From Thermodesulfobacteriota bacterium (GTDB lineage Bacteria; Desulfobacterota; WTBG01; JAGOGO01), in the NCBI GenBank assembly GCA_026625185.1, contig CP113000.1:2415622-2447621 (forward strand): a stretch of 32,000 bases of DNA, given 5' to 3'. The notes under the pieces were generated by a model. That model did no database searches. It saw nothing but the letters and a program-made list of their open reading frames with translations, and was not told where the DNA came from. A program made the translations under genes and the position numbers. The first letter of the stretch is position 1, and every line of letters starts with the position of its first letter. Shown one piece after another: positions 7,794 through 22,081 of the stretch.

Positions 7794-8630
7794 CTAAAGT
7801 TCTGCGGGGAGTTCATTGAGCTGGGTGAGGGAAAAGACCGGCCCGTCTTTGCAGACATACATCGTGCCGATGTTGCAGCGGCCGCAAATGCCGATGCCGC
7901 ACTTCATCCGCTTTTCCAGGGTAGTGATGATCTGATCATCTTTAAATTTAAGCTCTGAGAGAGCTTGGAGAGTAAATTTAATCATGATCGGGGGACCGCA
8001 GGTGATGGCCACGGTATTTTCCGGGGAAGGAGCGACTTCCTTCAGCACGTTAGGAACTAATCCGACCCGCTTATCCCACCCGGGGAATTCATTGTCCACC
8101 GTCAATATCATGTTAACATCAGATCGTTCTTCCCATTCCTTAAGCTCGTCCTTGTAACAGAGATCATTCGGAGTTCGGGCGCCATAGATGATGGTGATGT
8201 CGCCATAATCCGCCCGCTGGTCGAGCATAAAGAGGATCAAGGTACGAAGCGGGGCAAGACCGATACCGCCACCGATAAAAAGAATCTGTTTGCCTTTCAT
8301 TTGCGCATAAGGAAACCAGTTTCCCAACGGAGCGCGCACGCCGATTTGATCACCTTCGGCAAGTTCATGGAGGGCAGAGGTAACTTCTCCGGCCTTCATC
8401 ACGCTGAACTGAAGATAATCCATGCGCGTGGGCGGGGAGTTAATGACAAAGGTTGACTCTCCCACGCCAAAGAGAGAAAGCTGTCCTACCTGCCCTGGTT
8501 CAAAGGTAAAGTTTTTCATCTTCTCAGGATTATTTAATACCACCTGAAAAGATTTGATATTAGGCGTCTCATCAATAATTTTTATAACCGTACCTATTTC
8601 AGGGAGGTAGGGATTATGAATCGAACTCAT
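7794..8630 (-). CDS. flxA: FAD/NAD(P)-binding oxidoreductase with C-terminal 2Fe-2S site (PyrK / sulfhydrogenase gamma-like; FlxA-type)
   Basis: It has the NAD-binding motif LFIGGGIGLAPL and the C-terminal cluster motif MKCGIGICGRCN. It is the last gene of an hdrCBA-flxDCBA-like arrangement. Confidence 0.7.
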   Translation of the reverse strand: MSSIHNPYLPEIGTVIKIIDETPNIKSFQVVLNNPEKMKNFTFEPGQVGQLSLFGVGESTFVINSPPTRMDYLQFSVMKAGEVTSALHELAEGDQIGVRAPLGNWFPYAQMKGKQILFIGGGIGLAPLRTLILFMLDQRADYGDITIIYGARTPNDLCYKDELKEWEERSDVNMILTVDNEFPGWDKRVGLVPNVLKEVAPSPENTVAITCGPPIMIKFTLQALSELKFKDDQIITTLEKRMKCGIGICGRCNIGTMYVCKDGPVFSLTQLNELPAEL

Positions 8631-8633
8631 CCG

Positions 8634-9677
8634 TTAAGCTCCTTGAGCATGAGCAACAATTTCACTTATATCCACTGACATCGGGCAGTAACGAATACAC
8701 CGGCCGCAACCACAGCAGGCGATCACGCCTTGGTATTTTTTCGGATAATAACTAAACTTATGCCCCACGCGGTTTTTTAAGCGCTGGTGTTTGTTTTGTC
8801 GCGGGTTATGGCTGCTTGCCTCTAAGGTAAAGTGGAAAAACATGCAGGCATCCCAGCTCCGAATCCGCTCGCCGCTATTGCCGACCTGCTCATCCGTGAT
8901 GTTAAAACAATAACAGGTGGGGCACAGGTAGGTGCAGGCGCCGCAGCTGATACATTTTGCGGTTTCTCCTTCCCAAAATTGACTATTCTCAAAAAGAGAG
9001 AGAAGTTTTTCCGGCGTACCTTCAAGTATAGCAAAAGGTTTTTTTACTAATGCGGAAACTCTTTCGTGAGCTTTTTGCGCTTGTTCTTTATACGCGCTGC
9101 CGTCTTCAAATAAACTATCTTTGAAAATCTCTTTCCCTTTTTCCGTCATCGGCTCAAAAAAGTACCCTTTCCCCAGCTCGGTCATCATAAGGTCAGAACC
9201 ATCGCTTTCGGCCGGGCCTCGTCCAACGGACGTACAGAAGCAACCCGGAGAGGGCGCATTGCAGGCCAGGGTGATAATGGTGGTCTTTTCTCTTCTTCCT
9301 TTATAGTAAGGATCAGCGGTATCGGTTTCAAGGTAGACTCGGTCATAGATACGAAATCCCTGGGCATCGCAGGGTCGGCTACCAAAAATAATTGTTGGGA
9401 CAAAATCTAAATTTTCTTTAAGTTCTAAAGAGGTCTTTTTGGGGTCTTCCGGATCCTTTTTAAAATTAAAATTAAAGAGTGTCTCGCTTTGCGGAAAGAT
9501 AATTCCTTTGGGGGGGAGATTAGCCGGCCGGGTAAGGCAAAGGGTCGCTCCCGGAGCAAAACGTTTAAAGAGAACAACCTCACCATCTAAAACCGGCGCG
9601 AAGACCGCAAATTTTTTGCTTAAGGCTTCGAGTAACGCAGGTAAATTTTCTTTGGGGAGAAAACCAGTATCAGCCAT
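8634..9677 (-). CDS. flxB: Fe-S subunit (sulfhydrogenase beta/AsrA-like; FlxB-type)
   Basis: It has the motifs CISCGACTYLCPTCYCF and CCGCGRCIRYCP and is adjacent to flxA. Confidence 0.65.
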   Translation of the reverse strand: MADTGFLPKENLPALLEALSKKFAVFAPVLDGEVVLFKRFAPGATLCLTRPANLPPKGIIFPQSETLFNFNFKKDPEDPKKTSLELKENLDFVPTIIFGSRPCDAQGFRIYDRVYLETDTADPYYKGRREKTTIITLACNAPSPGCFCTSVGRGPAESDGSDLMMTELGKGYFFEPMTEKGKEIFKDSLFEDGSAYKEQAQKAHERVSALVKKPFAILEGTPEKLLSLFENSQFWEGETAKCISCGACTYLCPTCYCFNITDEQVGNSGERIRSWDACMFFHFTLEASSHNPRQNKHQRLKNRVGHKFSYYPKKYQGVIACCGCGRCIRYCPMSVDISEIVAHAQGA

Positions 9678-10624
9678 TAGATTTCATGCTCCTCAATAGT
9701 TGCCTCTTCTACCTTAAAGGTGTACATGGGTGGTGTATCATCGGGATTCATTCCGGCTTCATAACCAAATAGTTCTTTTAAATCCATGCTGATCTTCTTT
9801 TTGATTTTCGCCACCGGAATATCCATCGGGCAAACGCGCTCGCATTCTTCACACGAAATGCATCGGCCCGCCAAATGGAGACCGTGAATCATGTGGAACA
9901 TAGCTTTCTCCGTCACATTAGCCCGCTGTGAGGTCCAGTGTGGGTCACGGCTTTCGGCAATACATTTATCCTGACAGATGCACATTGGGCAGGCATTCCG
10001 GCAGGCATAGCAGCGAATACAACGGTCGAATTCCTTCTCCCAATACGCGCGCCGCTCTTCGAGTGATAGTTTTTCAAATTCTTTGGTTTCCTCAAAGGTA
10101 TCCTGCGGCTTATTGGATTGAATCGCCTCTCCTGCTAAGACATCATATTGGAGAGGAGTGGCTAATTGACAGGTTGCACATTTTCTTGGCGCAACATCTG
10201 CAGAAGGGATCGTCTTTGGCCCTTCGGGAATTTTTACGATGATATTGTCACCTTCGAAAGTCACTTCCTGGACAGTCTGCTGATTGATCGCCGCCATGAC
10301 TTTTTTAACGGAAATAACCCGTAGACAAGGAACACCGATGACTTTAATGTTTTCCCGGGTGATTAATTTTTCCTGCATGTACTGCACAATCGCGCGGCTA
10401 TCACATCCTTTTACTATCACCCCGACTTTTCCTTTCAAAAAGGGAATATAAGAGCAGAGGTTTTGCACGCAAAGCGGGTTCCAGATAAGCTGATCTACTT
10501 GTTCCGGCTTGTCCAGGAAATAAGGAGTCGCATGCAAGGGATCAAATCCCTGGCGATAACCGATAACAACATCCACCTCAGGTAATATCTTTCGTACCGC
10601 TTCTTTCAGTTTTTCTATGAACAC
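9677..10624 (-). CDS. flxC: Fe-S subunit with two 4Fe-4S motifs (FlxC-type)
   Basis: It has the motifs CIRCYACRNACPMC and CISCEECERVCP, and its ends overlap both neighbouring genes. Confidence 0.6.
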   Translation of the reverse strand: MFIEKLKEAVRKILPEVDVVIGYRQGFDPLHATPYFLDKPEQVDQLIWNPLCVQNLCSYIPFLKGKVGVIVKGCDSRAIVQYMQEKLITRENIKVIGVPCLRVISVKKVMAAINQQTVQEVTFEGDNIIVKIPEGPKTIPSADVAPRKCATCQLATPLQYDVLAGEAIQSNKPQDTFEETKEFEKLSLEERRAYWEKEFDRCIRCYACRNACPMCICQDKCIAESRDPHWTSQRANVTEKAMFHMIHGLHLAGRCISCEECERVCPMDIPVAKIKKKISMDLKELFGYEAGMNPDDTPPMYTFKVEEATIEEHEI

Positions 10625-11052
10625 TCTGTTTTCTCCTCTTTTTGGTGGAAGGGCCCGAGCTCATGAATTGCTTTGGTAAAATCGGTCACCACATTTTTCC
10701 ACCGAGCGCCCTCAGAAGCAGAAACCCAGGTATAGTGAAACCTGCGCTCATCAATGCCCAAGAAAGGAAGGAGCCGCTTTAACATTTCGAGCCTCCTTCG
10801 GGCATAGAAATTTCCATCCGAATAATGGCAATCACGGGGATGGCATCCGGAAACCAAAACCCCATCGGCGCCATTAAGCAGTGCTTTTACCACGAATAAA
10901 GGATTAACTCTTCCGGAGCAAGGAACCCGGATAATACGGAGATCAGTCGGTTGCTTGAAACGACCGACTCCGGCGGTATCTGCCCCTCCGTAGGAACACC
11001 AGTTACATAAGAAACCGACAATGCGAAGTTCTTTTCCGGCTAGGTAAGACAT
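10615..11052 (-). CDS. flxD: MvhD-like 2Fe-2S protein (FlxD-type)
   Basis: FLCNWCSYGGAD...VPCSGRV...GCHPRDCHY is the MvhD/FlxD signature. All conserved positions are Cys. Confidence 0.85.
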   Translation of the reverse strand: MSYLAGKELRIVGFLCNWCSYGGADTAGVGRFKQPTDLRIIRVPCSGRVNPLFVVKALLNGADGVLVSGCHPRDCHYSDGNFYARRRLEMLKRLLPFLGIDERRFHYTWVSASEGARWKNVVTDFTKAIHELGPFHQKEEKTECS

Positions 11053-13001
11053 AGGGCGTTAACCTCAGCTAAGAGTTGGTTGTCAGTAAAGTGCTGTAGT
11101 TGGATCGCCCCGCAGGGACAGGTGGAGTTACAAATTCCGCAGCCGGCACAAACCGTTTCGATAACATTCGCAATAATTCTCCCGTCACGGAGTTGTTGTT
11201 CTTCAATTGCGCCGAAAGGACAGGTCCCGATGCATTTGCGGCAGCCGACACAAATATTGGTATTAACCCTTGCTATCTGAGGATCGGACTCTAAAGTATC
11301 TTTAGAAAAGATCGAAAGGACTTTGGCTGCTGCCGCGCTTCCTTGGCCGACAGAGGCAGGAATATCTTTTGGTCCTTGACAGGCGCCGGCTAAAAACACT
11401 CCAGACGTATTAGTCTCTACGGGCCGCAGTTTGGGATGGCTTTCTACATAGAATCCATGCGGATCATAAGAAATATGAAGTTTTTCAGCTAAGGTTCTGG
11501 CATCAGTAGTAGCAGTTACTGCGGTTGCGAGCACGACTAAGTCCGCCTCAATTTCCACTTGTGTACCTAAAAGGGTATCAGCTCCTTTGACAATCATTTT
11601 TTTCCCTTTGGGATAGATTCTTGATACCCGGCCCCGGATATATTGCACACCATATTCTTCCTGAGCCCTTCGGGTAAATTCATCATAGCCCTTTCCCGGA
11701 GAACGGATATCCATATAAAAGACGTAAGATCGAGAGTCGGGGATATGATCTTTGGTTAAAATAGCTTGCTTGGCAATATACATGCAACAAAAGTTGGAAC
11801 AGTAAGGGATACCGATGGATTTGTCCCGGGAACCCGCGCACGACACAAAAACGATGGTTTTAGGTTCCGCGTGGTCAGACGGTCTTTCAATGTGTCCTGA
11901 GGTAGGGCCTGAAGCATTGAGGATTCGTTCGTATTGAATTCCCGAGATCACATCCGGATAGCGGCCGCCGCCGTATTCCGGAAGTTTATCGAGGTCAATC
12001 AGACCATAACCGGAAGCGACAATAATCGCTCCCACATCCTCCGTTACAATTTCATCCTTCATTTCGTAATTGATGGCTCCGACCGGGCAAAACTTAGCGC
12101 AGACACCGCACTTGCCTTTAATGAACTGCCGGCAGAATTGAGCATCAATCTTGGCTTTTTTGGGAATCGCTTGGGGAAAAGGGATATTAATTGCCCGGGC
12201 AGGTGCAACCCCAAAATTAAAATAGTCAAAAGCATTCCGAGAAGGGCATTTTTCGATGCAGGCTCCGCAGCCGGTACATTTGGACCAGTCTACGTAAGTT
12301 GCTTTTTTGCGGATTTTAATCTGGTAATTGCCCACATAACCTTTGATCTCTTCGATTTCGGAATAGGCGTACAGATTTATTTTTTCATGCTGGGATACAT
12401 CCACCATCTTGGGGCCTAAAATGCAGATTGAACAGTCTACCGTGGGGAAGGTTTTATCCAGACGAGCCATCATGCCCCCGACCGAAGGGCTTTTTTCCAC
12501 CAGCACCACATCTAACCCACCATCGGCACAGTCCAGCGCGGCTTGCATACCGGCTACGCCACCACCGATAACCAGCACCCGTTTATTAATTTTAAATTTG
12601 GCCGGGAAAAGAGGCTTGTTTTGTTTTGCTTTTTCAACCGCAAGCTTTATCGCTTCAATCGCTTTATTAGTATTTAATTCTTTATCTTCTCCAATCCACG
12701 AACAGTGTTCCCGGATATTAGCCATTTCAAAAAAGTACCGATTTAGTCCGGTTTTTTCCACTGTCCGGCGGAACGTGACCTCATGCATCCGCGGTGAACA
12801 GGCGGCAACCACCACTCGGTCAAGTTTTTCTCGTTTGATTGCCTCCTTGATTTCTTCCTGGCCAGGTTCGGAGCAGGTGTACATGTAGGTCGTAGCAAAG
12901 GCGACACCGGGCATCATTCGGGCTGCTTCGGCAACTTTAGCCACCTCAACCGTACCGGCAATATTATTTCCGCAATGACAAATAAATACTCCAACCCGCA
13001 C
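11040..13001 (-). CDS. hdrA: Heterodisulfide reductase subunit A, full-length all-Cys form
   Basis: It has the N-terminal CHCGNNIAG motif, the FAD motif VIGGGVAGMQAA, DCSICILGP, the inserted ferredoxin motifs CTGCGACIEKCP and CGVCAKFCP, and C-terminal CVGCRKCIGTCP/CAGCGICNSTCP. It starts at GTG, with GAGGAG inside the hdrB 3' end. Confidence 0.92.
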   Translation of the reverse strand: MRVGVFICHCGNNIAGTVEVAKVAEAARMMPGVAFATTYMYTCSEPGQEEIKEAIKREKLDRVVVAACSPRMHEVTFRRTVEKTGLNRYFFEMANIREHCSWIGEDKELNTNKAIEAIKLAVEKAKQNKPLFPAKFKINKRVLVIGGGVAGMQAALDCADGGLDVVLVEKSPSVGGMMARLDKTFPTVDCSICILGPKMVDVSQHEKINLYAYSEIEEIKGYVGNYQIKIRKKATYVDWSKCTGCGACIEKCPSRNAFDYFNFGVAPARAINIPFPQAIPKKAKIDAQFCRQFIKGKCGVCAKFCPVGAINYEMKDEIVTEDVGAIIVASGYGLIDLDKLPEYGGGRYPDVISGIQYERILNASGPTSGHIERPSDHAEPKTIVFVSCAGSRDKSIGIPYCSNFCCMYIAKQAILTKDHIPDSRSYVFYMDIRSPGKGYDEFTRRAQEEYGVQYIRGRVSRIYPKGKKMIVKGADTLLGTQVEIEADLVVLATAVTATTDARTLAEKLHISYDPHGFYVESHPKLRPVETNTSGVFLAGACQGPKDIPASVGQGSAAAAKVLSIFSKDTLESDPQIARVNTNICVGCRKCIGTCPFGAIEEQQLRDGRIIANVIETVCAGCGICNSTCPCGAIQLQHFTDNQLLAEVNALCLT

Positions 13002-13004
13002 GCG

Positions 13005-13964
13005 TTAAGACTCCTCTTCTTCAGCTTTTTTGGCCTTGGGCTTTTTTGCCTTGGCTTTTTCTTGTTCTTCTTTGATTCGTTCCTCAACCGGCCTTCGGGT
13101 TTTCAACAAACCTTCTGCCTGGATATTATGCTTATCAATTCCCAGTTCCTGAGGAGAATACCCATAGGTTAATCCCATGACTTGAGTGAAAAAAAGAACC
13201 GGTATATTAAAGGAAGACCCCATAGTGTTGTTGATTTGCCCTTGGCGCAGATCCAGGTTCTGATGGCAAAGCTGGCACGTGACGACCAGGCAATTTGCTC
13301 CGGCATCTAACGCCATGCTTAAGACCTTCGAGGAAAGCTCATTGACCATTTTTCTTTTCGCCACTCCGAAAGCCGCCCCGCAACATTCCACTTTAAAGGC
13401 AAAGTCACAAACTTTAACGCCCACTGATGTCATAAGATTATCCATGGCCATAGGATTTTCCGGGTCATCAAACTCCATAATTTCAGGGGGACGATTAATA
13501 ATGCACCCGTAATAGGGGGCAACCTTCAAGTCAGGAAAATCAAGGGTAACTTTTTCAGCAACTGGTTTAGGCCCAATATCCTCAACGAGGATTTGGAGGA
13601 CCGATTTTGCCGTCACTCCACAGTTGTATGGTTCATCAAGAATCGCATTAACTTCTTTCTTGAAACCCTCTTCTTTTTTCATCCGAAGATGCGCTTTTTT
13701 AAAAGCCGAAAGACACGCGGGGCAGGCGGTGATCACCGTGGAAGCTCCCATCTTTTCCACAATCGCTAAGTTGCGGGCCGCGACCGCAGCAGCGAAAACA
13801 TGGTCTACAGAATGGGCCGGAGTAGAGCCACAGCAGCTCCAGTCATCCGGCTCAATAAGCTTCACTCCTAAGGCGGCAAGCACCTTGCGGACTGACATGT
13901 CATATTCGATGGCTGAAGCTTCAAGCGAACAGCCGGGAAAATATATGTACTCTTTTTCAGACAC
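13005..13964 (-). CDS. hdrB: Heterodisulfide reductase subunit B (two CCG domains) with a K/E-rich C-terminal tail
   Basis: It has the motifs DWSCCGS and VECCGAA. The final ~30 aa are KEEQEKAKAKKPKAKKAEEEES-like. Confidence 0.9.
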   Translation of the reverse strand: MSEKEYIYFPGCSLEASAIEYDMSVRKVLAALGVKLIEPDDWSCCGSTPAHSVDHVFAAAVAARNLAIVEKMGASTVITACPACLSAFKKAHLRMKKEEGFKKEVNAILDEPYNCGVTAKSVLQILVEDIGPKPVAEKVTLDFPDLKVAPYYGCIINRPPEIMEFDDPENPMAMDNLMTSVGVKVCDFAFKVECCGAAFGVAKRKMVNELSSKVLSMALDAGANCLVVTCQLCHQNLDLRQGQINNTMGSSFNIPVLFFTQVMGLTYGYSPQELGIDKHNIQAEGLLKTRRPVEERIKEEQEKAKAKKPKAKKAEEEES

Positions 13965-14523
13965 GATTTTTTCTCATTTCCTGGAATTTGCGGAAAATTT
14001 CTGCCACCTTATCGCGCCCTTTGATCCTGGTGGGCAAAAAGTGGATTTTACCTTTGCCGAGGATCTTTGGTCCCAAATCAGCATCAGCAAGCAAATGCCC
14101 GGATTTGAAGTTATACCCCATAAGTATGCCAACTTCAAAAACCCGGCCATGGTGTTTCATGGAGGAGAGAAACGAATCATAAAAAGTTTTTACATCTTTT
14201 TCAGAAACGTAGTTTTCACGGCGGGCGATAATGCGGAGCACATCCATGATATGAGCGATATCAATCTCACAGGGGCAACGAGTGGTACAGGTTTCACAGG
14301 TAGCGCAAAGCCAAATTGATCGGGAGTTAAGGATAGTCTCCTTCTGCCCCGTTTGGAAGAGACGCATCACCTGGCTGACCGGGTAATCAAAGTATTTCGT
14401 ATAAGGACAACCGGCCGTACAGTTCCCACACTGGTAACACAGTGCCGGATCTTGAAGGCTTTCTTTTTTTACCTGGTCAATAAATTGCCAGTCAGTTTTT
14501 TCGGTTAAATTAATAGGTTCCAT
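13957..14523 (-). CDS. hdrC: Heterodisulfide reductase subunit C
   Basis: It has the motifs CYQCGNCTAGCP and CATCETCTTRCP. Confidence 0.9.
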   Translation of the reverse strand: MEPINLTEKTDWQFIDQVKKESLQDPALCYQCGNCTAGCPYTKYFDYPVSQVMRLFQTGQKETILNSRSIWLCATCETCTTRCPCEIDIAHIMDVLRIIARRENYVSEKDVKTFYDSFLSSMKHHGRVFEVGILMGYNFKSGHLLADADLGPKILGKGKIHFLPTRIKGRDKVAEIFRKFQEMRKNRV

Positions 14524-14714: not shown

Positions 14715-15200
14715 TCAAACTTTGATTATCGCACAGATTTCGTTATAGATCTCATCGACAATTTCGGGGATTCGTTCAGCAACAATCGGAGAGCATTGTT
14801 CTTCGAAGGTATAACAATCAGAGACGCCAATGCCATAAATTATGACTTCTTGGGGAATAGGGAGGCCTAAACGTTTTCCAAAGGTGATAGCAATGGGAAG
14901 GTTGATTTCGTGGAGGACACCAAGCCGTGAGGTGGGCGTAAAGTCCTCCACCCCAAACTTCATGAGCTTACCGGCATGCTCTTTACCCAGATCAACGGCA
15001 TCAATAATGACCGCCTTGTCGTAGCCGTAAAGGATGTCGAGAAGGTTAAAACCAGCCAGGGATGCTTCAACAAAATCTATCTCCGGAGAGGAAAGGCGTT
15101 TTTGCAACCCTCGGACTATATAAATACCGACACCATCATCTTTGAGAATGGTATTTCCTAATCCCAATACGAGGATTTTACCCGTTCTATGCTCGCTCAA
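14715..15200 (-). CDS. [NiFe] hydrogenase maturation endopeptidase (HyaD/FrhD family)
   Basis: It has ILVLGLGNTILKDDGVGIY at the N-terminus and overlaps the mvhA 3' end by 14 nt. Confidence 0.85.
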   Translation of the reverse strand: MSEHRTGKILVLGLGNTILKDDGVGIYIVRGLQKRLSSPEIDFVEASLAGFNLLDILYGYDKAVIIDAVDLGKEHAGKLMKFGVEDFTPTSRLGVLHEINLPIAITFGKRLGLPIPQEVIIYGIGVSDCYTFEEQCSPIVAERIPEIVDEIYNEICAIIKV

Positions 15201-16647
15201 GCTGCTCCACTACCTTACCGTGGATATCATAGATCGTTAATTTTAGAGGCATTTGGCCTGGGAGCGAATGGGTAGCACAGCTGAAGCAGGGGTCGTAGGC
15301 TCTAAAGGCCATTTCGATCATGTTCAATATACCGTTTGATATGACCTGACCTTTCTTAATAAGGCCCATGGCAGCTTTTTTGATGGACATCGAAATAGGA
15401 GCATGATTGTTGGTGGTGCCGACAATAAGGTTTGCCTTTTCCACAAACCCGTTTTTGTCAGTCTTATAGTGGTGGTAGAGCGTACCGCGCGGCGCTTCAA
15501 CCACCCCAACGCCTTCGGTAGGTGTCTCGGTCGGCAAGATGCGCACATTGGGATCAGTGATACTTTTATCCTGAGCCAGTTCCAGCAACCGTTCCGAAGC
15601 ATACATCAGTTCTATTACCCGCGCCCAGTGGTTGGCCAGTGTTGCATGCACCGGTTTTCCGAGGGTTGTTATATACTTTTCATAGGCCTCTTGTGCGAGG
15701 GGAGTAGCCATTCCTGAGGCTGCATTCAACCGCGCTGCGGGTGCAGCACGGTAGACGCCGCTTTCTTTGCCGTCAACAAAACCTTTCCATCCCACTTTCT
15801 TGAGGTAAGGGAACTTGAGATATGACCATGGCTCCACGTGTTCGGCGATATTGTCCAAATATTCTGAGGGTGTGTATTTGGCTACTTCTTTCCCCTCAGG
15901 GTCAACCACCTTGATTTTACCGTCGTAGAAGTTTACCTTATCATTCTGGTCAACCAGTCCCATGTAGTAGGTTTTCAACTGGTAGGGTTCGCTCAGAATG
16001 AGGTCCACATAGGCTTTGTTCTTGAGCACCACATCATCAAAGAGCTGTAAAGTAAACTTGGAGAATTCAACGCAGGACTTTGCCTTCTCCTCGATCTGGG
16101 CGCGCTCTTCCTCGGTTATCCCTTTGGATACACCACCAGGAAGGGTCCAGACCAAGTGAGTAGACCTTCCGGCAATCATGACCTGAATATCCTGAGCAAT
16201 ACCTCGATGTTTGATAACTTCCCCACCGATCGGAAGTCCTACTTTATCCACCACGCCGAGGATATTGCGTACTGCCGGGTCAGCATCCGGACCGAGCACA
16301 AAGTCCGGCGCCGCCAATGCGTAGAAGTGGGCGATGTGGCTGTGGACATAGTGAGCAGAATAAAACATCTCCCGAAGTTTTTTGGTCACTTCCGGAGGAT
16401 CAGCATGGTACACGGCATCTACGGCCTTACCCGAGGCCAGGTGATGTGCGCCCGGTCAGACCCCGCAGACCCTCGTAACAATTCGGGGTATTTCCTCTAC
16501 CGGCCTTCCTTCACAAAACTTCTCAAATCCCCGCAGCTCCGGAACCTGGAAATAGACATTCTCCACGTCACCGGCATCATTCAAGAAGATTTCGATTTTT
16601 CCATGGCCTTCAAGCCTGGTAATGGGATCAATACTAATTTTTTTCAT
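15187..16647 (-). CDS. mvhA: [NiFe] hydrogenase large subunit, group 3c MvhA-type, with an in-frame TGA (putative Sec, codon 64)
   Basis: Track ORFs 16456..16647 and 15187..16413 are in the same frame. They are separated by TGA (plus-strand tca at 16456-16458) and 14 codons reading PGAHHLASGKAVDA. The joined protein has RLEGHG, RVCGV-U-PGAHH (RxCGxCxxxH) and C-terminal DPCFSCATH plus a cleavable tail. Confidence 0.85.
16416..16446 (-). promoter_or_regulatory. Candidate bacterial SECIS hairpin downstream of the mvhA UGA
   Basis: The mRNA reads CAUC-ACC-UGGCC-UCGGGUAA-GGCCG-UA-GAUG. It starts 10 nt after the UGA. It has a 4-bp lower stem, a 5-bp upper stem and a GGU-containing apical loop. Confidence 0.4.
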
Positions 16648-17605
16648 TACTTCTTTTCCTCCTTAGATACGAAGCGGCCAATCCAAAGCGGTAAAAAGTG
16701 CCCACCGGATCCGCAATTTGGGAGACAATCGAATTAATTTCCGCCGGGTCATTAGAGTCGATTACCGAGGCTAACGCACTTAAAAATTTTGTTCCCTGAT
16801 CATGCACTTTGGGAGCTGGGCCATAACAGCCACGACACGGCATGTTAGACTTAACCGTGCACCGATTACCACAGCCACCGCGGGTTGCTGGGCCTAAGCA
16901 GATAATTCCTTGATCCAAGAAACACTTTTGGTTGTCAAAGATGATTTCATGCGGCCGATAAAACTTCTTAACTTTGCGGTCTTCCTTTGGCCGGGTGCAC
17001 TCATCACACAAGGTCTTATCCGAGGCGCCAATCACTGCTCCCTTGGGAGGCAGATCTCCCTTAGCAATGATATCAACCACAGCCGCAACCTGATGAATTG
17101 CCGGTGGGCAACCGGGCATGAAGTAATCAACATCCACAACTGCTGCTGTTGGCAATACCGTATTATAAAATTCCGGGATGATTAATTCGCCTTCCTGAGC
17201 AGAGAATCGTTGCACGGGCAAAATGCCATCAGGATTTTCCGTAGAAGGCGTCTCTCGATAGGCACGATTGAGAACAGTTTCCTTGGTGAAAAGGTTTGCC
17301 AAGCCAGGTATTCCACCCTGATGGGCACATGCCCCCATAGCAACTACTATCTTCGACTTTGCCCGCAAAAGTTTAGTCATATGTTCATTTTCAGAGTTTC
17401 TTACCCCGCCATTAATGAGACAAATATCAATGGCCCCATCAGCCATCTTTTCAATTTCTTCGTATTTGTGGTCGGTCGCTACCGGCCAGAGGACAATGTC
17501 GGCAATTTCGGCTATCTTCAGCAGACCCTCATTTGTATCCAGTATAGCCACATCACAGCCTCCGCAGCCTGCTGCCCAGTAGATCGCCAGCTTCAGCTTT
17601 GCCAT
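16634..17605 (-). CDS. mvhG: [NiFe] hydrogenase small subunit, MvhG-type
   Basis: It has N-terminal WAAGCGGCDVAILD and distal cluster cysteines (GCPP, CLGPATRGGCG, CRGCYGP). It overlaps the mvhA start by 14 nt. Confidence 0.9.
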   Translation of the reverse strand: MAKLKLAIYWAAGCGGCDVAILDTNEGLLKIAEIADIVLWPVATDHKYEEIEKMADGAIDICLINGGVRNSENEHMTKLLRAKSKIVVAMGACAHQGGIPGLANLFTKETVLNRAYRETPSTENPDGILPVQRFSAQEGELIIPEFYNTVLPTAAVVDVDYFMPGCPPAIHQVAAVVDIIAKGDLPPKGAVIGASDKTLCDECTRPKEDRKVKKFYRPHEIIFDNQKCFLDQGIICLGPATRGGCGNRCTVKSNMPCRGCYGPAPKVHDQGTKFLSALASVIDSNDPAEINSIVSQIADPVGTFYRFGLAASYLRRKRSNEKN

Positions 17606-17615
17606 GCCTTACCTC

Positions 17616-18035
17616 CTATTTCACCAATAACTTGGTTCCGTTAAAAGGTCCGAGAGCCTTAACCTTCTTAACAAACTCATCCACCACCTTAGCATACCGA
17701 TCTCCTTCAGAAGCTGATACCCACTCGAGCCTCACCCGATCATCTTCGACTCCAAATTGTTCAAGCACCCGCTTCAACAGGGAGTATCGCCTGATGGTTT
17801 TATAGTTTCCCTCATGGTAGTGGCAGTCACCGGGGTGGCACCCGGTAATGAGAACACCATCAGCGCCAGCGGCAAAGCACTTCATCACAAAGGAAGGCTC
17901 CACCCTCCCACTGCACATTACCCTTACTGGCCGTACGTTAGGAAGATATTTTATTCTTGCTGTGCCGGCCAGATCCGCGCCCGCATAAGAACACCAGTTA
18001 CAAAGGAATCCTACAATTTTCGGTTCAAAACTCAT
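17616..18035 (-). CDS. mvhD: MvhD (methyl-viologen-reducing hydrogenase delta subunit-like 2Fe-2S protein)
   Basis: FLCNWCSYAGAD...MCSGRV...GCHPGDCHY is the MvhD signature. Confidence 0.9.
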   Translation of the reverse strand: MSFEPKIVGFLCNWCSYAGADLAGTARIKYLPNVRPVRVMCSGRVEPSFVMKCFAAGADGVLITGCHPGDCHYHEGNYKTIRRYSLLKRVLEQFGVEDDRVRLEWVSASEGDRYAKVVDEFVKKVKALGPFNGTKLLVK

Positions 18036-19768
18036 ATAAGCACCCCCTCAATTTCAGAGACTATTTGATCTTCAGTAAAGAATTGGGCGATTATCGCTTC
18101 GCTGGGACAAGCAGCCGCACAGGTGCCGCATCCCTTACAGAGAACGGGATTTATTGATGATAGTTTCTCGTTTGGGTCATAGGAAATGGCGGTGTAAGGG
18201 CAGAGGTTATTGCATATCCGGCAGCCAGAACAGAGCTCCGGGATTATCTGTGAGATCGCGGCATCTAACTCCACCTCACCTTTCATGATCAATGACATAA
18301 CCTGTGAAGCAGCCGCCGATGCCTGAGCCACAGTATCCGGGATATCCTTAGGGCCTTGCGCTGCTCCGGCAATAAAGACCCCATCTGTTGACGTGGAAAC
18401 CGGTGCAAGCTTTGGATGCCTTTCCATGAAGAAACCATCCTTGCTCCGGCTCACCCCAAAAAGCCTCCCTAAAGCCTCAGCATCTTCTGGTGGTTCGAGG
18501 GCACAACAGAGCACTGCCATATCTACCGGGATCCGTCTGATCCTGCCTACCAATGTGTCCTCGCATCGGACCACAAGTTTTCCTTTCTCTTCCTCATAGA
18601 TCGGAAAGGTAATCTCTCCGGTTTTACCCCTTACAAACCTAACTCCTTCTTTCAAAAGTCGCTTATAGAACTCTTCATAGCCCTTCCCAAAACAGCGGAG
18701 GTCAATGTAGAAATTATAAACCTCAGCGTCAGTTTTCTCCTTTATCAGGTGGGCAAATTTGAGGGCGTACATACAACAGACCCGGGAACAGTATTCGTGG
18801 AAGTTTTCATCTCTGCTTCCCACACAATGAAGCAAGGCAACTGCTTTTGGTTTTTCACCATTTTCCAGAAGGACTTCTCCACCCGTAGGTCCGGCAGCAC
18901 AGTTGAGCCATTCAAATTCAAGGCTGGTGAGTACATTAGGAAGGGTTCCATAACCGAACTGGGCCATTGCCTCGGGATTAAAAGGATGGAAACCAGGGGC
19001 GAGAAGAATGTTTCCCACTTCCACTTCAATTTCCTCTTCCTTCATTTCATAGTCGATCGCTTCTCTCTCACAGACTTGGCTACAGATGCCGCACTTCCCG
19101 GTGCGAAAATGGATGCAGGTCTCGGGGTTAATTACCGGCTTATTCGGTACGGCTTGCATACTCGTTACATAAATCGAAGACTTGGGACCCAAGAGAAGCT
19201 CGCTGTGAACAATTTTTCGTTCCTTGATGTCATCCATGTGAATGTAACCAGTAGGACATATAGTCGCACAGGCACCACAAGCAATACAGCGATCTGATTC
19301 AGCAGTGAGGTGTCGCTCCTCTCCTTTACCCTCAAACCGAAAAACTACTTGGCCAACCACTTCCTCACACATATTGACGCAGAGGCCACAGAGGATACAG
19401 CCTTCCCCCTCCGCGGGTATGGAAATATTATATTCTTCAGCGAGATGCCGCAAAATGGGAACCTCGGGTGCCCGGGCGATGAGCCGTTCCACTGCTTTTT
19501 TTCTTCGCTCTTTCGTGCGATCGGAATCCGTGTAGATCTTCATTCCTTCTTTAACGTTGCTATTACAGGAGGTGGCAAGGCTACTTTCTTCCTTCCCCTC
19601 CTTTTCCCGCTTTACCTCCACGATACAGAGGCCGCAGACAGTCGTCGGTTTTACCCGCTCATGGTGGCAAAGGGTAGGAATGTCAATCCCGGCCTTTTGG
19701 CAAGCTTTAAGGATGGTAGATGATTCCTCTACCTGATATGGTTTATCGTTTATAGTAATCGAGACCAA
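18032..19768 (-). CDS. hdrA: Fusion protein: an N-terminal 2Fe-2S ferredoxin-like domain plus 2x[4Fe-4S] module, joined to the C-terminal two-thirds of HdrA
   Basis: The N-terminus has C-x10-C-x2-C-x19-C (LCHH..VCGLC..SC), then CILCGLCVNMC and CIACGACATICP. From CIHFRTGKCGICSQVCE onward it is colinear with HdrA1 from its second inserted-ferredoxin motif to the C-terminus. It has its own AGGAGG RBS and TTG start at 19768. Confidence 0.8.
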   Translation of the reverse strand: MVSITINDKPYQVEESSTILKACQKAGIDIPTLCHHERVKPTTVCGLCIVEVKREKEGKEESSLATSCNSNVKEGMKIYTDSDRTKERRKKAVERLIARAPEVPILRHLAEEYNISIPAEGEGCILCGLCVNMCEEVVGQVVFRFEGKGEERHLTAESDRCIACGACATICPTGYIHMDDIKERKIVHSELLLGPKSSIYVTSMQAVPNKPVINPETCIHFRTGKCGICSQVCEREAIDYEMKEEEIEVEVGNILLAPGFHPFNPEAMAQFGYGTLPNVLTSLEFEWLNCAAGPTGGEVLLENGEKPKAVALLHCVGSRDENFHEYCSRVCCMYALKFAHLIKEKTDAEVYNFYIDLRCFGKGYEEFYKRLLKEGVRFVRGKTGEITFPIYEEEKGKLVVRCEDTLVGRIRRIPVDMAVLCCALEPPEDAEALGRLFGVSRSKDGFFMERHPKLAPVSTSTDGVFIAGAAQGPKDIPDTVAQASAAASQVMSLIMKGEVELDAAISQIIPELCSGCRICNNLCPYTAISYDPNEKLSSINPVLCKGCGTCAAACPSEAIIAQFFTEDQIVSEIEGVLI

Positions 19769-19781
19769 GCTTTTCCCTCCT

Positions 19782-20627
19782 CTATTCTACTTCCTTGATT
19801 GTTTTATTTCCCATCTTGATGGCTCTTTTCTTTGGTACCGTATAAGCAGGGCAAGCGGCGAAACATATCCCGCAGCCGGTACATTTTTCCAAGGAAACAT
19901 ATCGGGGTTTCTTCTTGATTTTAGCCTTGAAGCTTCCAATGAAGCCTGATACTTCGGTTACCTCGCTGTAAGTAAGAAGGGTTATATTTGGATGCTGGCC
20001 CACCTGGGCCGTCTTGGGCGTCAAAATTCAGGCCGAGCAATCAAGGGTAGGGAAGGTCTTATCCAGTTGGGACATATGCCCTCCAATGGAAGGCTTCTTT
20101 TCGACAAGGTAGACGTGGTTTCCCCCTTCGGCTAAATCTATGGCTGCCTGAATTCCGGCGATACCACCCCCAACGATCAAGGTGCTGGGATTGATCTTGA
20201 CCTTTTTCATCTCTAAAGGAGCAAGGAATGCAGTTCGGAGCACTGCCCCCGAGACTAAGGCCTTTGCCTTTTGGGTGGCATCCCGCGCGTCTTCATGAAC
20301 CCAGGAACAGTGTTCCCGGATATTGGTCATATAAAATAGATAGCGATTAAGGCCCGCTGCTTCACAGGCTTTTCTAAAGGTATTTTCATGCATCCGCGGT
20401 GAACAGGCAGCTACCACCACGGCGTTAAGACCTTGCTCTTTGATATCGTTTTTTATAAGGTCTTGACCTGGATCAGAGCACATAAAACGGTACTCTTTAC
20501 ATACCGCCACTCCGGGAAGAGACGAGGCGAATTCCACCACCTCCGGGACATTTAATTTTCCCGCAATATTTGCGCCACAATCGCAAACAAATACCCCTAT
20601 CTTTTTCCCCGCGATTTTCGCTTCCAT
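19782..20627 (-). CDS. hdrA: HdrA N-terminal part (N-terminal Fe-S domain plus the first half of the FAD domain) with an in-frame TGA (putative Sec, codon 200); ends at TAG
   Basis: Track ORFs 20028..20627 and 19782..20024 are in the same frame and joined by TGA (tca at 20028-20030). The joined sequence TLDCSA-U-ILTPK aligns with TVDCSICILGPK of HdrA1. It ends after the first inserted-ferredoxin motif CTGCGICFAACP. Confidence 0.8.
19997..20010 (-). promoter_or_regulatory. Candidate SECIS upper stem-loop downstream of the hdrA UGA
   Basis: The mRNA reads GGCCC-AGGU-GGGCC, a 5-bp GC stem with a GGU-containing tetraloop. It starts 17 nt after the UGA. Confidence 0.4.
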
Positions 20628-20639
20628 GGCAAAATTCTC

Positions 20640-21509
20640 CTATAAGTATTTGGATACCACCGGCTCTGCCGGAACGATTAAACTTTTAAATCCCAGTGAG
20701 TTTTTGTCAAGCCCAAGGGCAATCCCCATTAACTGGGTAAAATAGAGAATCGGCATGGTGAAACCAAGATTAAATTTCTTTTTTACTCGGGGTTGATAAA
20801 CATCAATATTCATATGGCAAAGAGGGCAAGTAACCACCATAAGATCTGCCTTGTTATCCTTAGCACAGATGAGCAGATTTCTTACCATCCTAAGCCCAAT
20901 ATCCTCTCCCAACCCCACTAACGTGCCTCCACAGCATCTTACCTTTGCGGGAAAAAAGACCGGGTTGGCACCCAATGCGGTCACCAGTCTGTCTAACGAC
21001 TTTGGATTTTCGGTATCCTCAACTCCTCCTTTTGGCCTTACCATCAAACAGCCGTAATAGCAGGCTACGTTGAGTCCCTCCAGTCGGCGTTTCACCAGGC
21101 TGCTTATTTTTTCTAGTCCCACATCGTTTATGATAATCTCAGCTAAGTGTCTAACCTTTACGTTGCCATTATAGGAAAGCCCCACTTCCTCCAGTACCTT
21201 ATAGATTTTTTCTTTTATTTCTGGGTAATCTTTGAGATACTGATTCGTCTTTCTGAACATGGTGTAACATCCACTGCAGGGGATCGCCATATCCTTTCCC
21301 TCTTTCTCGGCTAAAGCGAGGTTCCTAGCGCACAGGGCAAAAGAGTTCATTTCATTTATGCCCATATAAAGGGAGGCGCCGCAACAGTTCCAATCCTCCA
21401 GTTCTTTAAAATTAACTCCTAAGGGCGCTGATATGGTATTGATCGATTCAAAGTAAGCCTTTGAAGTAGCCTTTAACGAACATCCGGGATAATATATGTA
21501 TTCCATCAC
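20640..21509 (-). CDS. hdrB: Heterodisulfide reductase subunit B (second copy)
   Basis: It has the CCG motifs DWNCCGAS and VRCCGGT. It lacks the K/E tail of copy 1. Confidence 0.9.
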   Translation of the reverse strand: MMEYIYYPGCSLKATSKAYFESINTISAPLGVNFKELEDWNCCGASLYMGINEMNSFALCARNLALAEKEGKDMAIPCSGCYTMFRKTNQYLKDYPEIKEKIYKVLEEVGLSYNGNVKVRHLAEIIINDVGLEKISSLVKRRLEGLNVACYYGCLMVRPKGGVEDTENPKSLDRLVTALGANPVFFPAKVRCCGGTLVGLGEDIGLRMVRNLLICAKDNKADLMVVTCPLCHMNIDVYQPRVKKKFNLGFTMPILYFTQLMGIALGLDKNSLGFKSLIVPAEPVVSKYL

Positions 21510-22081
21510 AGTCCGCCAACCTCCTCTGCTTTTTGGATCATTGTCTTTATTTTATTAACGTCTTTTATTTTCTCTGGCATCAGCGGGAGTTTACCATGAG
21601 AAAAGAGGCTCCATCCTAAAGGTATATCTTTAATAGATTTAAAGGGGTTCTTCATGGCAAACCGGAATACAAGCTCTGCTTCATGGTTTCGGCCGTATCT
21701 ATTTATCATATTGACAAACTCCTTCGAAAGTTTTTCCACCTTTAAACCCCGAGGATATTTCCCGGAACGGAGGGCAATTCTCTTTAAAGCATACATAATA
21801 TCGGTAATCTTTATTCCCATGGGGCACCGATAAGTACAGGTATAGCACGATGTGCAAAGCCAGATGGCCTGACTCGACAAAACTTCCTCTCGCAATCCTG
21901 CCCTGATCATTGCCACAAGATGCCTTGGAGTATAGTCCATCATAAAACTTGCCGGGCAGCAGCCGCTACAAGTACCGCACTGAATACATTGCACAATCTC
22001 CTCACCGCCAGGGATGGTACTGATTTCTTTTATAAAATCCAGAGCTACACCCCGTTCCATTAAAACATCTAGCCCAGCCAT
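21506..22081 (-). CDS. hdrC: Heterodisulfide reductase subunit C (second copy)
   Basis: It has the motifs CIQCGTCSGCCP and CTSCYTCTYRCP and overlaps hdrB2 by 4 nt. Confidence 0.9.
   Translation of the reverse strand: MAGLDVLMERGVALDFIKEISTIPGGEEIVQCIQCGTCSGCCPASFMMDYTPRHLVAMIRAGLREEVLSSQAIWLCTSCYTCTYRCPMGIKITDIMYALKRIALRSGKYPRGLKVEKLSKEFVNMINRYGRNHEAELVFRFAMKNPFKSIKDIPLGWSLFSHGKLPLMPEKIKDVNKIKTMIQKAEEVGGL

Follow-up and report, generated by a model that had tools for sequence, protein, structure and literature searches.

Four kinds of electron-bifurcating machinery are known, among them HdrA-type and Bfu-type enzymes. The inserted ferredoxin domain of HdrA is reportedly its low-potential exit, and in the Fdh-Hdr-Fmd complex of Methanospirillum hungatei this exit is said to be hard-wired to the Fe-S chain of a partner instead of serving free ferredoxin. 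Here, we analyze a 32,000-nucleotide stretch of DNA from a Thermodesulfobacteriota bacterium (contig CP113000.1 of assembly GCA_026625185.1; hereafter, the window), which contains an operon encoding an Mvh-type [NiFe(Se)] hydrogenase/heterodisulfide-reductase (Hdr) complex whose HdrA is made as two polypeptides. Gene 1 encodes the N-terminal half (N-half), and gene 2 encodes an additional Fe-S module fused to the C-terminal half (C-half). The operon shares its set of hdrC, hdrB, hdrA, mvhD, mvhG, and mvhA with MvhAGD-HdrABC of hydrogenotrophic methanogens (PDB 5ODC; 8RVU, 7BKB), all four HdrA domains are recognizable, and the best matches in the PDB are HdrA chains (E about 1e-110). Unlike the methanogen complex, the window HdrA is broken inside the inserted ferredoxin domain, and a three-cluster module of 186 residues sits at the break. 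Since the host is a bacterium, the disulfide substrate is presumably not CoM-S-S-CoB. The HdrA chain of Fdh-Hdr-Fmd (PDB 7BKB) is also among the top structural matches of a gene 2 model; in that complex, by contrast, a distinct polyferredoxin subunit serves as the wire, HdrA is one unsplit chain, and no BfuA-type module is present.

The extra module belongs with the type-2 BfuA proteins, which are defined by clusters A1, A2, and A4 without A3 or A5 (PMC9304861, Schut et al. 2022) and include WorA of WorABCSL (PDB 9MQX chain A) and BamI. The closest known system, and the sole described case of a HydBC-type module joined to an HdrA-type flavoprotein, is the class II benzoyl-CoA reductase (BCRII) BamBCDEFGHI, in which the HydBC-type BamGH is joined through the three-cluster BamI to the HdrA-type BamE, with an MvhD-like adaptor (bioRxiv 10.64898/2026.04.10.717634). 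The authors of that preprint state that no complex with two bifurcation modules had previously been reported. BamI, a subunit of its own, supplies the C-terminal ferredoxin domain (E1/E2) of BamE, whereas the window module is covalently placed in the inserted ferredoxin domain, i.e., on the other branch; in addition, tungsten-containing BamB/BamC are missing from the window, where a [NiFe] hydrogenase is the partner. FlxABCD-HdrABC (Ramos et al. 2015) is another bacterial link from NAD(H) to HdrA, of which the window holds an example, but Flx uses unrelated NADH-binding subunits and its HdrA (HdrA1, 653 residues) is colinear and unsplit. A 2013 genome paper noted, without analysis, that nuoEFG, mvhD, and hdrA units co-occur in Desulfotignum phosphitoxidans. 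Full-text literature searches gave no account of an hdrA split by nuoEF/bfuCB, with an earlier mention possible in the HdrA-module review of Appel et al. 2021. The parts come from known families (HdrABC-MvhAGD and type-2 BfuA), and the Hdr-Bfu-hydrogenase architecture that they form in relatives of this operon is widespread and apparently undescribed.

The operon reads hdrC-hdrB-hdrA(N)-[bfuA-like::hdrA(C)]-mvhD-mvhG-mvhA-hycI on the minus strand, with all genes co-oriented (Table 1). HdrA is accompanied in the same cluster by hdrB (CCG), hdrC (Fer4), and an MvhD-type adaptor (FlpD), and mvhA, mvhG, and mvhD adjoin hdrABC, as in group 3c MvhAGD-HdrABC gene sets; MvhA carries the large-subunit motifs RVCGV(U)PGAHH and, at its C-terminus, the all-Cys DPCFSCATH. 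Gene 1 consists of the N-terminal Fe-S domain, the first half of the FAD (thioredoxin-reductase-like) domain with its CSAU, and the first motif of the inserted ferredoxin domain, CTGCGICFAACP (residues 249-260), after which come a tail of 21 residues and TAG. Gene 2 opens in another frame 13 nt past this TAG, with an in-frame stop seven codons upstream of its TTG start. The NCBIfam HdrA2 profile (NF040770) is matched by gene 1 over positions 1-267 (E=1.8e-113) and by gene 2 residues 192-576 over positions 264-640 (E=1.6e-131). Therefore, the halves are complementary, and all four HdrA domains are present. Unlike a single colinear HdrA polypeptide of about 650 residues, this HdrA comes from two open reading frames, and either half scores 380-440 bits, below the cut-off of 1100 for NCBIfam HdrA (NF040770 / NF041778); the colinear HdrA1 of the window, with 798 bits, is below this cut-off as well. 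Gene 2 is 36% identical to HdrA1 across 449 residues and is matched by PDB HdrA chains at E=1e-109 to 1e-116.

The first 186 residues of gene 2 form a type-2 BfuA module that carries [2Fe-2S] cluster A1 and [4Fe-4S] clusters A2 and A4. The Pfam family Fer2_4 (PF13510) matches residues 1-82 (E=1.9e-16) with the ligand pattern C34-x10-C45-x2-C48-x19-C68, and these four cysteines are invariant in 85 homologues. Fer4_7 covers residues 124-174, which contain the two further 4Fe-4S motifs, CILCGLCVNMC (124-134) and CIACGACATICP (161-172). By phmmer, residues 4-186 match PDB 9mqx_A (E=6.7e-29), which is WorA, the BfuA subunit of electron-bifurcating WorABCSL (PMC12318220). Structure models were built for gene 2 alone (AlphaFold2) and for a re-fused natural relative, P0241. 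The gene 2 model has a mean predicted local distance difference test score (pLDDT) of 82.9, with 88-95 across residues 1-180 and 91-95 in the 2Fe-2S domain; Foldseek superposes it on 9mqx_A over 187 columns (rmsd 2.0 A, 35% identity), and the remainder matches HdrA chains. As in other type-2 BfuA proteins, the His-ligated A3 motif is missing: a Pfam scan found no NADH-G_4Fe-4S_3 in gene 2, and residues 83-123 hold no cysteine. The cofactor set is, consequently, that of type-2 BfuA; the BfuB and BfuC genes that accompany it in relatives, where the module is encoded right after BfuC- and BfuB-like genes, are missing beside it in the window. Unlike type-2 BfuA elsewhere, the module is neither a free subunit nor joined to a catalytic domain, being fused in frame to the HdrA C-half.

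Past the module, gene 2 continues with the second motif of the inserted ferredoxin domain, CIHFRTGKCGICSQVCE (218-234; C218-x7-C226-x2-C229-x3-C233), whose four cysteines (218, 226, 229, and 233) are invariant among gene 2 homologues. BLAST and HMM alignments placed CIACGACATICP on motif 1 of HdrA, as though gene 2 held a complete inserted ferredoxin domain. We rejected this reading because residues 1-187 superpose as a unit on WorA and the best HdrA2 profile match starts at residue 192; the alignment reflects generic motif similarity, and the structure comparison assigns CIACGACATICP to the BfuA-like module. The four-Cys motif of gene 1 is then the sole candidate partner for the C218-C233 motif, which suggests that the inserted ferredoxin domain is completed in trans.

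This layout agrees in most respects with the first-pass annotation, a reading of the letters alone, which had described the second hdrA of the window as two genes, the first ending just after the first inserted-ferredoxin motif and the second lying in a different frame with its own AGGAGG ribosome-binding site and TTG start. Both open reading frames are where it had placed them, and the complementary profile coverage and an identical layout in an independent contig (see below) bear it out. It had also assigned a NuoG/HndD-type 2Fe-2S domain to the beginning of gene 2, to be checked by domain search, followed by two further 4Fe-4S motifs; Pfam supports a 2Fe-2S fold for the first ~80 residues, and both motifs are recovered by Fer4_7 and by the WorA superposition. 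The stretch absent from HdrA1 had been put at about 215 residues and is closer to 190. Colinearity with HdrA does resume within gene 2 as described, although already at about residue 190, ahead of the second inserted-ferredoxin motif at which it had been placed. The selenocysteine codon in gene 1, the family-wide occurrence of the split, and the unusual lack of flavoprotein genes in the window go beyond that annotation.

Two open reading frames lying 13 nt apart in different frames could also result from a frameshift in sequencing or assembly, or from the decay of a normal hdrA into a pseudogene, and this arrangement is the sole point in favor of such an origin. However, an independent metagenome contig (L085; 85% amino acid identity in gene 2) repeats the arrangement down to the TGA, the TAG, the TTG, and a 13-nt spacer with AGGAG. 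Separate N-half and C-half proteins number in the hundreds and are usually encoded several genes apart: the families of ~280 and ~585 residues occur in many bacterial phyla and some archaea, gene 2 homologues form at least 120 clusters (578-624 residues, 100% coverage, all with three 4Fe-4S motifs), and the best 120 gene 1 homologues are almost all stand-alone proteins of 275-290 residues with 62-69% identity. Moreover, the start of gene 2 coincides exactly with the native N-terminus of its Fer2_4 domain, and the two genes show omega values of 0.064 and 0.080 between the window and L085, indicating purifying selection on both. On these sequence comparisons, an assembly artefact or a pseudogene can be regarded as excluded, and we give such an origin next to no credence.

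To place the split in context, we mapped reference proteins by tblastn to 84 related loci from species-representative genomes and metagenomes; the BfuA-like::HdrA-C fusion is present in 57 of them. A survey of hdrA neighborhoods had been recommended in the first-pass annotation, and it reveals the same split in many loci. Specifically, among the 50 assessable loci (those that extend 2.5 kb or more upstream of the fusion gene), a NuoF-like gene lies upstream in 49, directly adjacent in 40, a NuoE-like gene is found in 45, and the HdrA N-half stands farther upstream in 46. The usual order is hdrC-hdrB-hdrA(N)-[0-4 kb HydABC-operon-style regulators]-nuoE-nuoF-[bfuA::hdrA(C)]-mvhD, followed by mvhG-mvhA, by formate dehydrogenase, or by more HdrA-like genes, with the gene order hdrC-hdrB-hdrA kept. 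The NuoF-like protein of L086, the nearest relative with such a gene, matches BfuB/HydB of structurally characterized bifurcating enzymes best (7t2r_B 1e-140, 9mqx_B 1e-138, also 9bov_B and 8a6t_B) and complex I Nqo1 far more weakly (3e-95). In three metagenome-assembled genomes from Spirochaetales, Verrucomicrobiota, and Myxococcales (L027-L029), the HdrA N-half runs in frame into NuoE-like, 2Fe-2S thioredoxin-like sequence (HdrA_N::BfuC), which argues for a physical association of the flavoprotein module with the N-half. The tail motif of gene 1, P-x-[KR]R-x-I-[KR]-x-G-x-x-x-[IV]-[KR], is likewise kept across loci.

Altogether, the gene order across these loci strongly supports an origin of the split by insertion of a bfuC-bfuB-bfuA (NuoE/NuoF/NuoG-N-like) cassette into the inserted ferredoxin domain of hdrA. 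After such an insertion, hdrA would remain as an N-half ending in a conserved tail and a C-half to which BfuA is fused, and the split would be the scar of the cassette. The split is an ancient and widespread family trait and is not peculiar to the window genome: among its hosts are Ignavibacteria, Zixibacteria, Aminicenantes, Calditrichaeota, Armatimonadetes, Acidobacteriota, Chloroflexota, Desulfobacterota, Spirochaetes, Verrucomicrobiota, Cloacimonadota, Gemmatimonadota, Fibrobacterota, Altiarchaeales, Thermoplasmata, and other archaea. The HydABC-operon-style regulator set between the halves, which is found in many loci, suggests regulation resembling that of confurcating hydrogenases and hints at NADH- and ferredoxin-linked H2 metabolism in the relatives. 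Examples are L002:493-4282, L087:2379-6229, and L001:2301-4255, with a DRTGG protein, HATPase_c proteins, a PHP protein, and a HydS-like sensory [FeFe]-hydrogenase homologue (Fe_hyd_lg_C), as is typical of HydABC operons.

Two variants of the arrangement were seen among the relatives. In a second subfamily, fusion proteins of ~1060-1110 residues combine the BfuA-like module and a partial HdrA C-part with a further HdrA N-part and C-part (L016, L020, L022, L024, L026, L033-L041, L043-L045, L047-L049, and L054; several archaeal). Upstream of this double HdrA, which is reminiscent of BamE, lie a short HdrA_N fragment and NuoE/NuoF-like genes. In Dehalococcoidia (L003:3825-6962 and L004), the NuoF-like gene between the halves encodes a fusion of 1045 residues with a GltD/NfnB-like domain (Fer4_20 and Pyr_redox_2), and the genes downstream are not those of a hydrogenase but encode a formate-dehydrogenase-like molybdopterin enzyme and a second colinear HdrA with HdrCB.

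Against this background, the window stands out by what it is missing. Neither tblastn with NuoE/NuoF queries nor Pfam searches of the flanking open reading frames found a NuoE/NuoF-like gene in the 32 kb; the Hdr-Bfu double-module gene signature is present in the relatives, with the flavoprotein genes absent from the window. It is the sole assessable locus (1/50) without a NuoF-like gene, and L085 likewise has no NuoEF. In a neighbor-joining tree, the window and L085 are sister to the NuoEF-bearing L086/L087, deep inside NuoF-bearing clades. This placement strongly supports a secondary loss of the flavoprotein genes in the window lineage, and the window looks like a rare derived member of the Hdr-Bfu-hydrogenase architecture.

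Two further cases without NuoEF, L053 and L051, lie elsewhere in the tree. The former is the only other locus from the genome collection in which the halves adjoin and NuoEF is absent; its fusion gene is frameshifted between the 2Fe-2S and dicluster domains (L053:10001-10539), which could be decay or an indel error of long-read assembly. The latter (L051:2826-5141) encodes an unsplit single HdrA of 777 residues, and a search with this protein returned about a dozen clusters of 'HdrA-like polyferredoxin' with 773-811 residues (P0241, P0242, P0265, P0270, P0273, P0279, P0297, P0309, P0316, P0343, P0346, and P0347). In alignment, these variants have no 2Fe-2S domain and keep the N-half tail with its motif, the BfuA linker helix, and both extra 4Fe-4S motifs, from which we infer that they derive from the split form by deletion and re-fusion. 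The model of P0241 (pLDDT 87.3, predicted TM score 0.83) superposes on the whole Methanothermococcus HdrA 5odc_A with a TM of 0.88. P0241 is a close homologue of an unsplit variant in L088 (L088:9001-11406), which stands in a full hdrC-hdrB-hdrA-mvhD-mvhG-mvhA-hycI-hypAB operon without NuoEF; that operon adjoins a sulfhydrogenase-like (group 3b-like) cluster. The likely series runs from canonical HdrA through the cassette-split form and loss of bfuCB (the window) to loss of the 2Fe-2S domain and re-fusion.

The module left behind in the window appears to be in use. In the comparison with L085, the 2Fe-2S domain has an omega of 0.058 and the dicluster domain one of 0.025, both as low as in the catalytic core, although the values are rough because dS is near saturation (0.9-2.7). 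All 12 cluster-ligand cysteines of the module are retained. At the same time, of the 20 positions in the 2Fe-2S domain that are near-invariant (at least 85% conserved in 118 homologues), four are changed, namely A23C, Y42T, R46G (99% conserved), and V65A, all of them common to L085; the other domains are changed at 4-8% of such positions, a linker with three positions excepted. We read this pattern as a functional module with a remodeled terminal 2Fe-2S domain.

In terms of electron flow, the BCRII preprint has the inserted ferredoxin domain of HdrA reducing external ferredoxin (bioRxiv 10.64898/2026.04.10.717634). If this domain is completed in trans by the two chains, clusters A4-A2-A1 would extend the low-potential branch of HdrA by three clusters. 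In the relatives, the chain would run on as far as the FMN/NAD(H)/ferredoxin site of BfuBC and couple Hdr-type and Bfu-type bifurcating sites in one hydrogenase. In the window organism, the chain would most likely be free of BfuBC, and the altered [2Fe-2S] domain could be a new terminal site for a soluble or other partner. A BfuBC-independent role is supported by the re-fused NuoEF-less variants, which keep the extra 4Fe-4S motifs and, in L088, stand in a complete operon, and by the lineage-specific changes of the 2Fe-2S domain, including R46G. Thus, the suggestion in the first-pass annotation of a rewired low-potential branch or a different acceptor gains support and can be specified as a type-2 BfuA connector, for which we infer the electron path and the acceptor.

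As a joint explanation, a two-chain HdrA of cassette origin that has lost its flavoprotein genes and keeps a BfuBC-independent three-cluster wire is the account we favor, with moderate confidence. Several points weigh against it. The neighbor-joining tree carries no support values, the search for NuoEF covers 32 kb of a 3.3-Mb genome, so that BfuB/BfuC could be encoded elsewhere, and the completion in trans and the cluster-to-cluster distances in a two-chain HdrA are drawn from homology. In addition, purifying selection on the 2Fe-2S domain would fit a BfuBC encoded elsewhere equally well.

This last point leads to an alternative in which the module still docks a HydBC/BfuBC-type flavoprotein from elsewhere in the genome, forming an Hdr-Bfu-Mvh supercomplex from unlinked genes. 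Low omega and four intact ligand cysteines in the 2Fe-2S domain are what such docking would lead one to expect, as this domain contacts BfuB in BfuA (PMC12318220); besides, of the other NuoEF-less lineages, L053 has a frameshift past this domain and L051 has deleted it, whereas the window keeps the domain intact. However, the flavoprotein genes lie in cis between the halves in 49 of the 50 related loci, no NuoE/NuoF-like gene occurs within 11-18 kb on either side, and near-invariant 2Fe-2S residues, R46 among them, are replaced in the window lineage. We consider docking in trans unlikely, though it is the strongest of the alternatives.

Two other explanations can be judged on the same data. 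The module could be a leftover of BfuBC loss that transfers no electrons and is kept for folding the HdrA halves or holding them together. The erosion seen in other NuoEF-less lineages, where the 2Fe-2S domain is deleted (L051-type) or the fusion gene is frameshifted (L053), and the unusual substitutions in the window domain agree with this explanation, but the full set of 12 ligand cysteines and the core-like omega of the module do not, and even the re-fused forms keep both extra 4Fe-4S motifs; such a leftover is improbable. Alternatively, the module could wire the split HdrA to the FlxABCD-HdrABC-type cluster directly downstream and so take the place of BfuBC in the link to NAD(H). The operons adjoin each other in the same orientation; NAD_binding_1 and an Fe-S domain are found in FlxA, and both FlxB and FlxC are Fe-S proteins. 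Yet adjacency is the sole evidence for this connection, and the Flx-Hdr clusters of other bacteria are reportedly self-contained units (Ramos et al. 2015); we regard it as very improbable.

Returning to the favored account of a BfuBC-independent wire, a broader version of it would make the window a BfuBC-less intermediate of a [NiFe]-hydrogenase supercomplex class in which BfuBC is plugged into the HdrA exit, with the [2Fe-2S] end re-purposed for docking. This class would place two mechanistically different bifurcating sites in series in one hydrogenase, a proposal that we hold tentatively, at a little less than an even chance. At the gene level, the split hdrA is the signature of an Hdr/Bfu pairing much commoner than that of BCRII, with a [NiFe] hydrogenase or a formate dehydrogenase. 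If the coupling is true, it changes the view of how H2, NADH, and the ferredoxin pool are linked in many uncultured anaerobes. Moreover, the full cassette, the window type without flavoprotein genes, and the re-fused form without 2Fe-2S domain make up a natural series of deletions in which the requirements of the low-potential HdrA branch can be tested.

Gene 1 is a single gene only with selenocysteine read-through, since an in-frame TGA, at which an open-reading-frame listing breaks it in two, lies in the context TLDCSA-U-ILTPK. This TGA aligns with the second Cys of the TLDCxxC motif, at which TGA occurs in 12 of 63 HdrA N-parts in the fetched loci and also in L085, and HdrA is listed among the CxxU selenoprotein families (PMC13188914). 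It is probably a selenocysteine codon in a CxxU motif. A candidate bacterial selenocysteine insertion sequence (SECIS) hairpin with a GGU loop follows 18 nt past the TGA, and a block of ~55 nt around the TGA that includes it is nearly invariant between the window and L085, whereas flanking codons vary synonymously. The folding energy of this hairpin is no better than that of shuffled sequence (z=+0.31 and -0.76), and the same applies to a hairpin after the mvhA UGA (z=+0.57). An Rfam search of the window gave no hit, and no sel genes or tRNA-Sec were found in the 32 kb. Gene callers cut the hdrA N-half to 199 residues (P0123, L085), and databases annotate the halves as "FAD-dependent oxidoreductase" and "4Fe-4S binding protein". 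Consequently, truncation at the Sec codon and generic annotation lead genome surveys to undercount Hdr-Bfu complexes.

Table 1. Features of the split-hdrA operon and its surroundings, in window coordinates
Feature	Position (strand)	Size or residues	Basis or remark
hdrC, 2x[4Fe-4S] subunit, first gene of the operon	21506..22081 (-)		Pfam Fer4_8/Fer4_17
hdrB, two CCG domains	20640..21509 (-)		Pfam PF02754 CCG x2, E=3e-25
hdrA N-half (gene 1)	19782..20627 (-)	281 aa	NCBIfam HdrA2 profile match
In-frame TGA of gene 1	20028-20030 (-)		probable selenocysteine codon
Candidate SECIS hairpin, GGCCC-AGGU-GGGCC	19997..20010 (-)		
First inserted-ferredoxin motif, gene 1	19848-19883 (-)		
TAG of gene 1	19782-19784 (-)		
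Intergenic spacer between hdrA halves	19769..19781 (-)	13 nt	read from sequence, kept in L085
AGGAGG ribosome-binding site inside spacer	19776-19781 (-)		
TTG start of gene 2	19766-19768 (-)		
Gene 2, BfuA-like module fused to hdrA C-half	18032..19768 (-)	578 aa	Pfam and NCBIfam
[2Fe-2S] domain of gene 2	19523..19768 (-)	aa 1-82	equivalent to BfuA cluster A1 / NuoG N1b
2x[4Fe-4S] ferredoxin-like domain of gene 2	19211..19408 (-)	aa 121-186	equivalent to BfuA clusters A2, A4
Second half of HdrA inserted ferredoxin domain, gene 2	19034..19210 (-)	aa 187-245	aligned to HdrA1 and solved HdrA structures
Rest of HdrA FAD domain and C-terminal 2x[4Fe-4S] ferredoxin domain, gene 2	18035..19033 (-)	aa 246-578	
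mvhD, [2Fe-2S] adaptor	17616..18035 (-)		Pfam FlpD, E=1e-53
mvhG, [NiFe] hydrogenase small subunit	16634..17605 (-)		Pfam Oxidored_q6; database name F420-non-reducing hydrogenase small subunit
mvhA, [NiFe] hydrogenase large subunit	15187..16647 (-)		translation and Pfam NiFeSe_Hases
In-frame TGA of mvhA	16456-16458 (-)		
HycI-type hydrogenase maturation protease	14715..15200 (-)		Pfam HycI
FlxABCD-HdrABC-type NADH-linked system	7794-14523 (-)		second co-oriented Hdr cluster

The second, co-oriented Hdr cluster contains hdrC2, hdrB2, the colinear hdrA1, an mvhD-like gene, and FlxC/FlxB/FlxA-like genes. The domains of the latter are FrhB_FdhB_C and Fer4 in FlxC, Fer4_22 in FlxB, and NAD_binding_1 and DHODB_Fe-S_bind in FlxA.

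The large-subunit gene mvhA also has an in-frame TGA (RVCGV-U-PGAHH), which forms a CxxU at the Ni-Fe bridging position. A TGA of this type is present in 7 of 31 Mvh-type large subunits of the fetched loci (L055, L060, L064, L065, L077, L086, and the window); according to a 2026 paper, an N-terminal CxxU is known for just one Group 3 sequence. The large subunits of L037 and L041 have the classical C-terminal DP-U-xxC instead.

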